A stretch of DNA of 64,000 bases from Escherichia coli. Lineage in GTDB: Bacteria; Pseudomonadota; Gammaproteobacteria; Enterobacterales; Enterobacteriaceae. Position numbers: made by a program. Shown one piece after another: positions 6,001 to 15,000 of the stretch. Where the stretch lies: the NCBI RefSeq assembly GCF_048403405.1, contig NZ_CP183129.1. One strand, given 5' to 3'. Every line of letters starts with the position of its first letter. Position 1 is the first letter of the stretch.

Positions 6001-9000
6001 GGTTGCGTTTGTTCATGCTCGTAGAGTCAAACTGCGGTTGCCATCACAGATATAAATGCGCAATAACTGAACAATTGCATTAAAGATTTAAGTATGTTCA
6101 AAGTGAAGAATGAATTATGACAATCAACGATTCGGTAATTTCAGAACAGGGAATGTGTGAAGAAGAACAGGTCGCGCGGATTGCGTGGTTTTACTACCAC
6201 GACGGGCTGACCCAGAGTGAGATCAGCGATCGTCTCGGCCTGACCCGTTTGAAAGTGTCGCGATTACTGGAGAAAGGGCATCAATCCGGCATTATTCGCG
6301 TACAGATTAATTCTCGCTTTGAAGGCTGTCTGGAATATGAAACACAATTACGTCGTCAGTTTTCGCTGCAACATGTCCGGGTGATCCCAGGGCTTGCGGA
6401 TGCTGATGTCGGCGGGCGACTAGGGATAGGCGCGGCGCATATGTTGATGAGTTTACTTCAACCACAACAGATGCTGGCGATTGGTTTTGGCGAGGCAACC
6501 ATGAATACGCTGCAACGCTTAAGTGGTTTTATTTCGTCGCAGCAAATTCGCCTGGTCACGCTCTCCGGTGGCGTCGGTTCTTATATGACGGGTATCGGAC
6601 AGCTTAACGCGGCGTGCAGTGTGAATATTATTCCGGCTCCGCTGCGGGCATCCTCCGCTGACATTGCCCGTACGCTAAAAAATGAAAATTGCGTCAAAGA
6701 TGTTCTGTTAGCCGCGCAAGCAGCGGATGTGGCGATTGTCGGCATTGGGGCCGTGAGTCAACAAGACGACGCGACGATCATTCGCTCCGGTTATATCAGC
6801 CAGGGCGAACAGTTAATGATTGGCCGAAAAGGGGCGGTTGGCGACATCTTAGGCTACTTTTTTGATGCAAAAGGTGACGTTGTCACGGATATCAAAATAC
6901 ATAACGAACTGATTGGCTTACCTTTAAGCGCGCTGAAGACCATTCCCGTCCGGGTTGGCGTAGCAGGGGGAGAAAATAAAGCCGAAGCCATTGCCTCTGC
7001 AATGAAAGGCGGTTATATCAACGCACTGGTTACCGATCAGGACACAGCAGCGGCGATTTTAAGTAGTTAAATTTGCATGACCTTATTACCGGGAATGATG
7101 GAGAACGTACAGAGGAACAGACAGAACGCATAAGCCAAGGATAATCTAATGGCTCGACTCTTTACCCCTTCAGAATCAAAGTATTACCTGATGGCGCTGG
7201 ATGCAGGTACCGGAAGTATTCGGGCTGTGATATTCGACCTGGAAGGCAATCAAATAGCCGTGGGACAGGCGGAGTGGCGGCACCTGGCAGTACCGGACGT
7301 TCCTGGTTCTATGGAATTTGATCTCAACAAAAACTGGCAACTGGCGTGTGAGTGTATGCGCCAGGCGCTGCACAACGCCGGCATAGCCCCGGAGTATATC
7401 GCTGCCGTTTCGGCATGTTCGATGCGTGAAGGCATTGTTTTATATAACAATGATGGAACACCGATCTGGGCCTGCGCCAATGTGGATGCCAGAGCGGCGC
7501 GCGAAGTTAGCGAACTTAAAGAACTGCACAACAATACCTTTGAAAACGAAGTTTATCGCGCCACCGGACAAACGCTGGCTTTAAGCGCTATTCCCAGATT
7601 ACTTTGGCTGGCGCACCATCGTTCTGATATCTACCGACAGGCGTCGACCATCACCATGATCAGCGACTGGCTGGCCTATATGCTCAGCGGCGAACTGGCG
7701 GTGGATCCCTCTAACGCTGGCACCACGGGACTTCTTGATCTAACCACCCGTGACTGGAAACCTGCATTGCTGGATATGGCCGGACTGCGGGCCGATATTC
7801 TTTCTCCTGTCAAAGAAACCGGCACATTGCTGGGCGTGGTAAGTTCACAAGCGGCGGAACTCTGCGGTCTGAAGGCGGGCACTCCGGTGGTCGTTGGAGG
7901 AGGCGACGTGCAACTTGGTTGCCTTGGGTTAGGCGTTGTCCGTCCGGCACAAACCGCTGTTCTTGGCGGCACATTCTGGCAGCAAGTTGTAAACTTAGCC
8001 GCGCCGGTGACAGACCCAGAAATGAACGTGCGCGTTAATCCTCATGTTATTCCTGGCATGGTACAAGCTGAATCTATAAGCTTTTTTACCGGACTCACCA
8101 TGCGCTGGTTCCGCGATGCTTTCTGTGCCGAAGAAAAACTGATTGCCGAACGTTTAGGCATCGACACCTATACGCTGCTTGAAGAGATGGCAAGTCGGGT
8201 GCCGCCTGGGTCGTGGGGCGTAATGCCGATATTCTCCGACAGAATGCGCTTTAAAACCTGGTATCACGCTGCGCCTTCCTTTATTAATTTGTCTATTGAT
8301 CCGGATAAATGTAACAAAGCGACATTGTTCCGTGCGCTGGAAGAAAATGCGGCGATAGTATCAGCGTGTAACTTGCAGCAAATCGCTGATTTCTCGAATA
8401 TTCATCCTTCATCGTTAGTCTTTGCAGGCGGAGGTTCAAAAGGGAAATTATGGAGTCAAATTCTCGCTGATGTCTCGGGATTACCCGTCAATATTCCGGT
8501 GGTCAAAGAAGCCACTGCATTAGGATGTGCCATTGCAGCTGGCGTCGGTGCCGGAATTTTTTCATCAATGGCAGAAACCGGAGAACGCCTGGTTCGCTGG
8601 GAACGGACGCACACACCAGACCCGGAAAAGCATGAACTTTATCAGGATTCACGCGATAAGTGGCAGGCAGTTTATCAGGATCAGCTGGGGCTGGTTGATC
8701 ACGGGCTGACGACGTCGTTATGGAAAGCGCCTGGGTTATAGTTTCATTGACAGCCACATCATGATGACCGTGGCTGTTAGTTTTTGAGTATTGGTATTCT
8801 CATTTCCCTTCTTTTAGAGCTGGTTTGTTAAATGCCAGCTTGCAGATTCATCGTTCCATCGCCAGTAATATATTCAAGGGGAAATTGCTATTTTTCTTAA
8901 AATATTAAGCATAACCCTTATTTTATAGCGAATATTCCTAAAGGCACAAATGAATGAAAAAGAGTTTTAATAGAGTTCTTTTTTAGCAATTAATGCTATT

Positions 9001-12000: not shown

Positions 12001-15000
12001 ACGACGCTCAATTTGCTGGAACACGATGATAGCCATGTCGGCGTTCAACTGGTGAAGGCGCAAACGGTTATTGGGTCGGGTGGCTCATTAACGTTACGTG
12101 ATTTACAGGGCGACGAGGTGGAAGCGGACAAAACGTTACATATTGCACAAAACGGGACAGTGGTCGCCGAGGGTGATTATGGATTCCGCCTCACGACCGC
12201 ACCTGGTGATGGTTTGTATGTTAACTATGGGCTGAAAGCGCTGAACATCCATGGTGGGCAAAAGCTGACGTTAGCCGAACATGGCGGAGCCTATGGCGCA
12301 ACGGCCGATATGTCGGCAAAAATCGGTGGTGAAGGGGATCTGGCAATCAATACGGTGCGACAGGTTTCGCTTTCTAACGGTCAGAACGACTATCAGGGGG
12401 CAACCTACGTTCAGATGGGGACATTACGTACCGATGCGGATGGCGCGCTGGGCAATACTCGGGAACTGAACATCAGCAACGCGGCCATCGTCGATCTTAA
12501 TGGATCGGCCCAGACGGTAGAGACATTCACCGGGCTGATGGGTTCGACTGTTTTGTTTAAAGAGGGGTCGCTGACGGTAAATAAAGGTGGGATCAGTCAG
12601 GGTGAACTGACAGGTGGCGGAAACCTGAATGTTACAGGGGGAACGCTGGCTATCGAGGGGCTTAATGCACGCTACAATGCGTTAACCAGCGTTAGCCCAA
12701 ATGCGGAAGTCAGCCTCGATAATACGCAGGGGTTAGGCAGAGGAAATATTGCCAATGACGGTCTGTTAACGCTAAAAAACGTGACTGGCGAACTGCGCAA
12801 TAGCATAAGCGGGAAGGGTATCGTGAGCGCAACCGCCAGGACAGATGTAGAGCTGGATGGCGATAATAGCCGCTTTGTGGGGCAATTCAACATTGATACA
12901 GGCAGCGCGCTCAGCGTCAACGAGCAGAAAAACTTGGGTGATGCTTCCGTTATCAATAATGGCCTGCTCACCATCTCCACTGAGCGTAGCTGGGCGATGA
13001 CGCACAATATCAGCGGTAGCGGTGATGTGACAAAACTGGGTACCGGGATCCTGACTCTTAACAAAGATTCCGCGGCGTATCAGGGTACGACGGATATCGT
13101 GGGTGGTGAAATTGCTTTCGGTTCCGACTCTGCCATTAATATGGCAAGTCAGCACATTAATATCCATAACAGCGGTGTGATGTCGGGAAATGTCACCACT
13201 GCAGGTGATGTGAACGTTATGCCAGGGGGGACACTGCGTGTCGCTAAAACCACTGTCGGCGGTAACCTGGAGAATGGTGGCACGGTTCAAATGAACAGCG
13301 AAGGGGGGAAACCGGGGAATGTACTGACCGTTAACGGTAACTATACCGGAAACAATGGCCTGATGACGTTCAACGCGACGCTGGGCGGCGATAATTCGCC
13401 CACCGATAAGATGAACGTGAAAGGCGATACCCAAGGGAATACTCGCGTTCGGGTTGATAACATTGGCGGCGTCGGTGCACAAACGGTCAACGGTATTGAA
13501 CTCATTGAGGTCGGCGGTAATTCTGCAGGTAACTTCGCGCTGACCACCGGAACTGTCGAAGCTGGGGCTTACGTCTACACGCTGGCTAAAGGGAAGGGGA
13601 ATGACGAGAAAAACTGGTATCTGACCAGTAAATGGGACGGCGTAACGCCAGCGGATACACCCGATCCCATCAATAATCCCCCTGTTGTGGATCCGGAAGG
13701 CCCATCAGTTTATCGCCCGGAGGCCGGAAGCTATATCAGCAACATTGCCGCAGCCAACTCGCTGTTTAGCCATCGCTTACACGACCGTCTGGGTGAGCCG
13801 CAGTATACAGATTCACTGCATTCTCAGGGTTCGGCAAGCAGTATGTGGATGCGTCATGTCGGAGGGCACGAACGTTCAAGGGCCGGTGACGGTCAGCTAA
13901 ATACTCAGGCTAACCGCTATGTATTGCAGCTAGGCGGCGATTTGGCGCAGTGGAGTAGCATCGCGCAGGATCGCTGGCATCTCGGCGTCATGGCAGGCTA
14001 TGCCAATCAGCACAGTAATACTCAGAGTAATCGTGTGGGTTATAAATCGGATGGGCGCATCAGCGGGTACAGCGCTGGGATTTACGCGACCTGGTATCAG
14101 AACGATGCGAATAAGACCGGCGCTTATGTTGACAGCTGGGCGCTGTATAACTGGTTTGATAACAGCGTCAGTTCCGATAACCGTTCTGCTGACGACTATG
14201 ATTCTCGCGGTGTGACGGCCTCTGTTGAGGGTGGGTATACCTTTGAAGCGGGAACATTTAGCGGCAGCGAAGGGACGCTGAATACCTGGTACGTCCAGCC
14301 ACAGGCGCAAATCACCTGGATGGGTGTGAAAGATTCTGACCATACCCGGAAAGACGGAACACGCATTGAAACGGAAGGCGACGGAAACGTGCAAACGCGA
14401 CTTGGGGTGAAAACCTACCTGAACAGTCATCACCAGCGTGACAATGGTAAACAGCGTGAGTTCCAGCCTTACATTGAAGCGAACTGGATCAACAACAGCA
14501 AAGTCTACGCCGTGAAGATGAATGGTCAAACCGTAAGCCGTGATGGTGCGCGTAATCTCGGTGAAGTACGTACCGGGGTTGAGGCGAAAGTAAATAACAA
14601 CCTTAGCCTGTGGGGGAATGTCGGTGTGCAACTAGGTGATAAAGGCTATAGCGATACTCAGGGCATGCTGGGTGTGAAATATAGCTGGTAAACCGTATAA
14701 GCCGCATGTCGAAGATGCATGCGGCTTAATATTGCCGACTTCAAACGACTTTTAAATCCTCCTTTTTATCCGCGATCGCGGATATCGCAGCGTTTATCCC
14801 GTAGAGCGGATAAGATGTGTTTCCAGATTGACTTTATCCTCACTAAAGGATAAAACTGATAATATCCCCTTGAGCGGATAAATTTGCTGTGGACGTATGA
14901 CATGATGAGCTTTCAGAAGATCTATAGCCCAACGCAATTAGCGAATGCAATGAAACTGGTTCGTCAGCAAAATGGCTGGACGCAGAGCGGGCTGGCGAAA

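Follow-up and report, generated by a model that had tools for sequence, protein, structure and literature searches.

An intact ECSE_1600 family autotransporter gene in Escherichia coli and the poly-G lesion of its K-12 counterpart, yneO/ydeK

A 64,000-nucleotide stretch of Escherichia coli contig NZ_CP183129.1 (the window; positions count from its first nucleotide) holds, between lsrK and hipB, a long gene that a preliminary description had read as an intact AIDA-like autotransporter whose K-12 counterpart is a pseudogene. The locus thus raises the question of whether the frame is truly uninterrupted, and if so, what it encodes, how it may be expressed, and how it came to be broken in K-12. 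Our answer is that the gene is an intact allele of the chromosomal gene that in K-12 is the pseudogene yneO/ydeK; we put the probability of this explanation at about 0.85, a joint figure for all of its parts. The family is already catalogued, and an intact autotransporter here is a correct yet ordinary and already known finding. What goes beyond the preliminary description is the exact K-12 lesion, three poly-G hot spots, a passenger of a different type, and the placement of a predicted promoter, a candidate marbox and terminator-like elements.

The open frame, the K-12 lesion and the poly-G tracts

The features on which this part of the argument rests are the coding sequence (CDS) and three runs of G within it.

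9271..14691, + strand: autotransporter CDS, 1806 amino acids (aa), ATG start, ECSE_1600 family; orthologue of K-12 yneO/ydeK
10584..10590, + strand: poly-G tract T0, G7 in the window; slippage-prone; G9 in strain E21
13101..13108, + strand: position of poly-G tract T1, in the window the interrupted form GGGTGGTG; G8 in most strains
13225..13230, + strand: poly-G tract T2, in the window GGGGGG then A; site of the K-12 lesion

The uninterrupted 1806-aa frame claimed at the outset is confirmed by the list of open reading frames (ORFs), by translation of 9271-14691, in which the sole stop is the terminal one, and by the NCBIfam profile NF011422. The latter matches the protein end to end (residues and profile positions 1-1806 of 1806) and scores 4129 bits where the curated cut-off is 2335, which places the protein in the ECSE_1600 family of autotransporters. 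Because the profile aligns over all 1806 positions, a hidden frameshift is excluded, and re-translation likewise revealed none in 9271-14691. The region of 5950 bp that comprises the gene and its upstream spacer is 100% identical at the DNA level to E. coli TUM14771 (NZ_CP128875), where the product is WP_001327996.1, named "ECSE_1600 family autotransporter" in RefSeq; the whole window is 99.97% identical to TUM14771, except for two indels away from the autotransporter gene. The gene order is lsrACDBFG, lsrR, lsrK, autotransporter, hipB, hipA. As lsrK occupies 7149..8741, 8742-9270 is a 529-bp intergenic region. The protein is rich in Gly (14.9%), Thr (9.6%) and Asn (9.0%), and its gene contains 53 GGG codons.

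In K-12 W3110 the orthologous CDS, also between lsrK and hipB, is flagged as a pseudogene, "frameshifted". The two loci share 97.1% DNA identity over 5950 bp; the alignment of 8742-14691 with K-12 contains 175 substitutions and, besides a single-base indel in the spacer, a second one in the CDS. This sole CDS indel is an extra G in T2, where the window reads CCAGGGGGGACA and K-12 CCTGGGGGGGGCA. The K-12 tract is G8, the in-frame form G7, and the window has GGGGGGA at 13225-13230. The extra G shifts the frame at codon 1318 and leads to a stop at aa 1326; with one base removed, the K-12 CDS again encodes 1806 residues, 42 of them unlike those of the window protein. MG1655 carries the same 72-mer as W3110 across T2. 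The K-12 lesion would thus be one slippage event, from G7 to G8. The identity, the shared lsrK-hipB position and the "frameshifted" flag bear out the view of yneO/ydeK as the pseudogene counterpart, and the alignment that had been proposed for finding its lesion locates it at T2, codon 1318. K-12 yneO, then, is neither intact nor identical, and the finding stands. The two alleles share the NF011422 family, the chromosomal position and the underlying 1806-aa frame; they differ in that K-12 has G8 at T2 and is frameshifted, whereas the window has GGGGGGA at T2, an interrupted T1 and an intact frame.

How unusual is such an intact allele? The region is matched in 4366 of 5426 complete E. coli genomes, with at least 80% coverage in 3958; the alleles are mostly 95-99% identical to ours, and at least 99% identical in just 13 records. 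From these we drew 22 full-length loci at even steps along the hit ranking and took their state from the annotation: 13 are intact and nine are pseudogenes. The protein database holds two clusters of 1806-aa sequences at 98% identity, with 5726 and 18868 members, and an 86% identical orthologue of 1806 aa comes from "Enterobacteriaceae bacterium G50". An intact gene thus prevails in the sample and is very abundant in public data, and the intactness that the preliminary description set against the K-12 pseudogene is not unusual. The lesions of the nine broken loci are as follows.

K-12: T2 (13225-13230), +1
LD93-1: T2, -1
O103 RM8385: T1 (13101-13108), +1, plus 12-bp and 233-bp deletions
O55:H7 DEC5A: T1, -1, plus an 8-bp duplication at 13253
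Strain 149: 13253, the same 8-bp duplication as in O55:H7 DEC5A
ET665: T1, -2
E21: T0 (10584-10590), +2 (G9), annotated as frameshifted
Strain 8600: codon 17, stop
23AR1101: 13933, -1

A change in the length of T0, T1 or T2 is present in six of the nine, so that most inactivations in the sample trace to the three poly-G hot spots. Among strains the tracts range from G6 to G9. T0 is the sole uninterrupted tract of the three in the window allele, the interruptions of T1 and T2 being GGG-to-GGT and GCA-to-ACA changes. We counted tract alleles by exact matches of 71-73-mers in complete genomes. At T1, the in-frame G8 form was found 2298 times, G9 361 times, G7 277 times and the interrupted form 609 times; at T2, the in-frame G7 of K-12-type sequence was found 1171 times, G8 389 times and the G6-A form of the window 598 times. 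Many of the 389 G8 genomes are laboratory K-12 derivatives. Among the T1 matches listed, those with G9 include O26 and O103 strains and those with G7 include O111 and O121 strains, and the data suggest that out-of-frame alleles of T1 are fixed within lineages.

Two genomes, ER1709 and 2013C-4991, match both the T1 G7 (-1) and the T2 G8 (+1) forms. The second change does not rescue their frame, because the -1 frame stops at aa 1303, before T2 is reached, as seen in O55:H7 DEC5A. ER1709 is a K-12 derivative, though unlike W3110 at T1; the difference would be either a new slippage in an existing pseudogene or an assembly error.

Where the frame is open it appears to be kept so. Compared with five other intact alleles, the window allele has a ratio of nonsynonymous to synonymous substitution rates (dN/dS) of 0.11-0.15, highest in the repeat array (0.15-0.20) and lowest in the barrel (0.07-0.13), which indicates purifying selection on the sense frame. 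Many rare variants carry in-frame deletions that leave 1526-1709 aa. The deletions (aa 1-280, 622-718, 953-1169, 1089-1254, 1106-1208 and 1311-1444) are scattered and extend beyond the repeat array; that of aa 1311-1444 removes the whole autochaperone, and the 217-aa deletion of aa 953-1169 is found in 41 contigs. Two annotated autotransporter proteins are fused to lsrK-type (PF00370) or HipA-type (PF07804, PF13657) domains, presumably through deletions or miscalled starts.

Protein architecture and relatives

The protein divides into five parts, from the extended signal peptide (ESPR) to the barrel.

9271..9432, + strand: ESPR and hydrophobic core, aa 1-~54; PF13018 at aa 1-47, E 7.4e-15
9538..11220, + strand: N-terminal passenger, aa ~90-650; ~11 copies of a 52-residue Gly-rich repeat, predicted beta-solenoid
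11221..13263, + strand: non-repetitive passenger, aa 651-1331; Pfam PATR at aa 704-728 and 1253-1281
13264..13584, + strand: autochaperone, aa 1332-1438; AC_1 PF18883, E 3.7e-26; Pertactin PF03212, E 1.6e-10
13843..14688, + strand: C-terminal translocator beta-barrel, aa ~1525-1806; PF03797, E 4.6e-42; TIGR01414, 409 bits

Signal peptide, passenger and C-terminal barrel, all three of which had been claimed, are detected. With an ESPR-type signal peptide, a barrel that ends in an aromatic residue (...KYSW), an autochaperone and a passenger modelled as a beta-helix over aa 55-700, the protein is, as judged from its sequence, a classical monomeric (type Va) autotransporter of the ECSE_1600 family with an AIDA-I-type translocator. 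Pfam places Pertactin at aa 1335-1452 and the autotransporter barrel at aa 1525-1784. Of the solved structures, that of the AIDA-I translocator (4mee) aligns with aa 1345-1806 at 297 bits and the IcsA autochaperone structures 3ml3 and 5ke1 match aa 1195-1457. The ESPR would take the protein through Sec, with cleavage probably near SASG/AS, and the C-terminal 12-stranded barrel would insert into the outer membrane. The passenger of ~1280 residues would then be threaded out, folding from the autochaperone into a long beta-solenoid whose tip would be the array of ~11 copies of the 52-residue repeat.

This array is visible by windowed self-comparison of aa 90-650, where offsets of 104, 208, 312 and 416 aa point to a unit of ~52 aa in ~11 copies; self-BLAST of the whole protein returns the identity hit alone. 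There is nearly no internal repeat signal in aa 651-1331. In the passenger, eight stretches match TIGR04393, the "T5SS/PEP-CTERM-associated repeat". Repeats of this type are found widely, aa 55-700 being matched at E<=1e-3 by 2875 representatives of 50%-identity clusters; these are typically proteins of 1000-3900 aa with 30-38% identity. An AlphaFold2 model of aa 55-700, built on an alignment of 15 homologues, is an all-beta regular solenoid with a predicted local distance difference test score (pLDDT) of 90.8 and a predicted template modelling score (pTM) of 0.89. In a Foldseek search of the PDB with this model, Ag43 (4kh3, 7koh, 7ko9) and TibA (4q1q) came top, at E 1e-5 to 3e-4. On the model, the fold class would be that of the beta-helices of autotransporter adhesins, with no close structural homologue.

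Comparison with AIDA-I shows how far the term AIDA-like can be carried. The type Va architecture is shared, and the autochaperone and barrel match 4mee and the AIDA-I profile NF033176 (354 bits), so that the label holds for the C-terminal ~500 residues; it fails for the passenger, which belongs to another repeat family, TIGR04393. The 354 bits fall short of the NF033176 cut-off of 1200 and cover only aa 1298-1805, Pfam scans of aa 1-1000 and 901-1806 show none of the ~19-residue AIDA repeats, and no heptosyltransferase gene of the aah or tibC type is adjacent, the neighbours being lsrK upstream and hipB downstream. For these three reasons we do not file the protein as a member of the AIDA-I family.

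The solved structures that come closest in fold to the N-terminal passenger model, a beta-solenoid, are those of Ag43 and TibA (E 1e-5 to 1e-3); both are E. coli surface autotransporters, yet are built on a ~19-residue repeat, in contrast to the ~52-residue TIGR04393 unit seen here. An Ag43-style Dam/OxyR switch is also absent, because there are no GATC sites in 8742-9300. Of the named relatives, Salmonella MisL scores best in the translocator region, with 462 bits over aa 1480-1806; Salmonella ShdA (218 bits) and E. coli YfaL/EhaC (200 bits), adhesin-type autotransporters like MisL, match the C-terminal part. However, the scores of MisL, ShdA and YfaL are far under their equivalog cut-offs (1297, 2249 and 1459, respectively) and the similarity is limited to the C-terminal third. 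By analogy of fold and with the relatives Ag43, TibA, MisL and YfaL, we infer that the protein may serve at the cell surface as an adhesin, aggregation or biofilm factor. UpaE, tried as an identity for the protein, was rejected: it is a 271 kDa protein encoded in an ipuR-upaE operon behind an invertible element (PMC6083910).

The upstream region and the transcription unit

The elements around the coding sequence are listed in order along the window.

8746..8786, + strand: terminator-like hairpin and T-run, directly past the lsrK stop; 12-bp stem then UAGUUUUUG
8790..9270, no strand: AT-rich upstream regulatory region, G+C 0.297; equivalent of the K-12 'promoter island'
8982..8996, - strand: MarA-box-like site GCATTAATTGCTAAA, sole match in the window, 0 expected by chance
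9189..9217, + strand: predicted sigma-70 promoter, -35 CTGACA, 17-nt spacer, -10 TTTAAT; exact match, unique in the window
9260..9263, + strand: Shine-Dalgarno GGAG, 7 nt ahead of the ATG, read from the sequence
14698..14728, + strand: terminator-like hairpin, 7 nt past the stop codon; 12-bp stem

As an RNA, 8742-8800 folds with -18.8 kcal/mol (z-score -3.44), and its sequence is essentially invariant in 10 strains. This terminator-like element would separate the lsrRK transcript from the autotransporter gene, and with a hairpin and T-run just past lsrK, the autotransporter should have a promoter of its own. The hairpin at the other end, 14698-14728, folds with -18.9 kcal/mol (z-score -4.39); a clear U-run is absent, and a terminator function is suggested by its structure and position. 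Strict consensus scans for sigma-70 promoters and terminators in 8600-9400 and 14600-15200 gave nothing, the hairpins having been found by folding instead. The gene would then be a monocistronic unit, bounded by the hairpin past lsrK and that past its own stop, and driven by a weak sigma-70 promoter at 9189-9217.

The sequence CTGACA-17-TTTAAT is listed as the yneO promoter in the catalogue of RpoD genomic SELEX (systematic evolution of ligands by exponential enrichment; PMC3946193), and an RpoS-holoenzyme SELEX peak lies at the K-12 spacer (PMC5493296). Transcription is predicted to start near 9224, leaving a 5' untranslated region of ~45 nt. What had been described as a 530-bp leader is therefore mostly upstream regulatory DNA rather than transcribed leader, given a promoter at 9189-9217 within the 529 bp. 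The description of 8790-9270 as AT-rich was accurate: its G+C content is 0.297 (0.308 for 8742-9270) compared with 0.478 for the whole window, and it falls in the most AT-rich class of 481-bp stretches in the 64 kb, with 0.06% as AT-rich and the minimum, 0.295, starting at 8781. Across 10 E. coli strains the spacer has a mean column identity of 98%, and the block 9140-9270 is nearly invariant.

The K-12 ydeK/lsrK spacer belongs, as island 1596197_345, to a set of 78 promoter islands, and all compiled chromatin immunoprecipitation (ChIP) studies show H-NS bound to it (PMC3661553, Table 1); the upstream region of yfaL is likewise among the H-NS-bound islands (PMC3661553, Table 1). The yneO spacer is also flagged HNS in the RpoD SELEX catalogue (PMC3946193). 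With H-NS binding published for a K-12 region that is 97% identical, there are good grounds to expect silencing of the window allele, and the 480 bp of AT-rich DNA would most likely silence the gene through H-NS under laboratory conditions.

In enterotoxigenic E. coli (ETEC) H10407, a MarA ChIP-seq peak lies at gcactaattgctaaa upstream of ETEC1580/yneO, with in vitro binding of MarA at 0.3 uM, and the window variant, GCATTAATTGCTAAA, is identical to the strongly bound grxA<>ybjC site (PMC5684230, Table 1). By analogy, MarA is a possible activator or anti-silencer acting through the candidate marbox at 8982-8996. A search of Rfam at E<=1 over 8600-15200 found no RNA family, and so no known riboswitch or small RNA upstream. 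The repeats in 8700-9400 are short, AT-rich and imperfect, and include nothing like an invertible switch of the fimS or ipuS type.

Alternative readings, neighbouring loci and significance

The recurrence of length changes at the same tracts invites the reading that this is a phase-variable contingency locus, as is known for surface proteins of Neisseria, Haemophilus and Bordetella, in which selected poly-G tracts T0, T1 and T2 switch the protein off and on within a clone; the window allele would then be a 'locked-on' variant owing to its interrupted T1 and T2. If true, the tracts would toggle the ECSE_1600/yneO autotransporter at useful rates in the gut. Changes of +1, -1, +2 or -2 in six of nine sampled pseudogenes fit this reading, as do the out-of-frame lengths in hundreds of genomes (T1 G9 in 361 and G7 in 277, T2 G8 in 389). 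When synonymous codons are shuffled, the common K-12-like intact allele, with three runs of 7 G or more where 0.59 would be expected, shows a mild excess (P=0.02). The number of G runs in the window allele is however at chance level (P=0.41, or 0.4 in round terms), and a third allele gives P=0.09; with 14.9% Gly in the protein, such runs readily arise. Out-of-frame alleles that look fixed in lineages point to slow, one-way decay rather than rapid switching, the broken alleles often carry extra lesions (the 8-bp duplication, the 12-bp and 233-bp deletions and a nonsense codon), and sequencing errors may underlie some of the tract lengths called. Where mismatch repair is proficient, G7-G8 tracts in E. 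coli have mutation rates far below those of classical phase-variable tracts, and homopolymer-based phase variation of surface proteins is, to our knowledge, not an established mechanism in E. coli. We therefore consider switching, and with it the 'locked-on' variant, improbable, and regard the tracts as mutational hot spots that result from composition, not as demonstrated evolved switches.

In this strain the gene could also be functionally dead or irrelevant despite its open frame, an 'intact pseudogene' that is never expressed and is itself heading to decay. About 41% of the sampled full-length loci are broken, ~20% of genomes are without the gene, H-NS binds the region upstream of the gene in K-12 (PMC3661553), and the literature searched records no phenotype. 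Against this stand the dN/dS of 0.11-0.15 between intact alleles, and of 0.07-0.13 in the barrel, which indicate sustained purifying selection, the near-invariance among strains of the promoter block and ribosome-binding site, and the retention of an 86%-identical 1806-aa orthologue outside typical E. coli; we give this reading a small chance. That the passenger is an enzyme or toxin, such as a lipase or a protease of the serine protease autotransporters of Enterobacteriaceae (SPATE) type, and not an adhesin, is far less likely still. The passengers of autotransporters do vary in function, and those of the SPATE type (Hbp, EspC, Pet, IgA1 protease) appear low in the fold-search list. Their E-values are 0.06 and above, though, neither Pfam nor NCBIfam detects a catalytic domain (protease, lipase or other) anywhere in the protein, and the part modelled, aa 55-700, would be a plain repeat solenoid with no globular head. 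Our preferred explanation thus remains that of a surface autotransporter gene that would be under purifying selection where intact and yet often lost, mostly by slippage at three poly-G tracts.

Several points count against this explanation in its turn. The strict sigma-70 consensus scan of 8600-9400 did not return the promoter, because TTTAAT is without A at position 2 of the -10 hexamer, and the assignment at 9189-9217 rests on in vitro SELEX data from K-12. The candidate marbox lies ~230 bp upstream of the promoter, which is far for direct activation by MarA. With low TM-scores (template modelling scores) of 0.23-0.35 and 12-16% identity, the Foldseek matches to Ag43 and TibA support the general solenoid class and no specific binding mode. 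Homopolymer errors in long reads may account for some of the 'frameshifted' public alleles, which would inflate the estimate of decay. Finally, the literature searched on yneO, ydeK, ydeU and ECSE_1600 has no functional study of the protein, so that the adhesin or biofilm role rests on analogy.

Within the gene there are seven antisense ORFs of at least 80 aa. The suggestion that these are by-products of a repetitive Gly/Thr/Asn-rich coding sequence agrees with their number: open stretches of at least 80 codons number eight, compared with 9.8 +/- 2.2 in codon shuffles of the gene, and the frame mirroring the sense codons, which has the fewest stops, contains six of them. The longest, 310 codons at 12772-13482 (- strand; 236 aa from its first start codon), exceeds 98.7% of shuffles. 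We nevertheless rejected it as a gene, which it probably is not, because it is shortened to 171 codons in K-12 and to 207 in strain PapRG-04-4.

Downstream of the gene, four TATCC-N8-GGATA motifs at 14767-14880 precede hipB; these we take to be the HipB operator consensus, marking the start of the next unit. A fifth exact copy at 27998-28015 (+ strand), inside a fimbrial usher gene and far from hipBA, is probably a chance match. That usher belongs to the region downstream of hipBA, ~17800-31000, where a block of genes of oxidoreductase type is accompanied by an intact fimbrial operon comprising a fimA-like subunit, a chaperone, the full-length 883-aa usher (26565-29216), ydeS, ydeR and ydeQ. 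All that K-12 has in place of this region is a helix-turn-helix fragment, itself frameshifted, and the usher ydeT, truncated at its N-terminus; a second locus close to the autotransporter gene is thus intact in the window and degraded in K-12.

Of the two indels relative to TUM14771, one is the absence from the window of 353 bp inside a LysR-family regulator gene downstream of hipA (junction near 17057). The gene has 900 bp in TUM14771 and in the window there is only a 143-aa ORF at 17005-17436 (- strand), so that the regulator is probably truncated in the window strain. At the other, ~49165-49175, TUM14771 is ~700 bp longer, with an IS200/IS605-family tnpA between digH and gadC, an insertion that is absent from the window. 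A PADLOC search returned no defence-system match. Among the strains with autotransporter pseudogenes, lsrK is also annotated as a pseudogene in 23AR1101 (internal stop) and O103 RM8385 (frameshift), and in strain 149 hipA is partial and hipB unannotated. In some lineages the whole lsrK-hipBA neighbourhood seems to be affected by decay.

The practical value of these results is modest, and the current understanding of autotransporters is unchanged by them. 'Frameshifted' calls at poly-G tracts in long-read assemblies need to be checked against reads. The cause of the lack of this autotransporter in K-12 is now documented as one extra G at codon 1318, and its repeated inactivation at three poly-G tracts neatly illustrates how the gene of a Gly-rich surface protein decays in E. 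coli. Natural isolates, in turn, supply an intact and selectively maintained copy with which to characterise a protein that has apparently not been studied by experiment.

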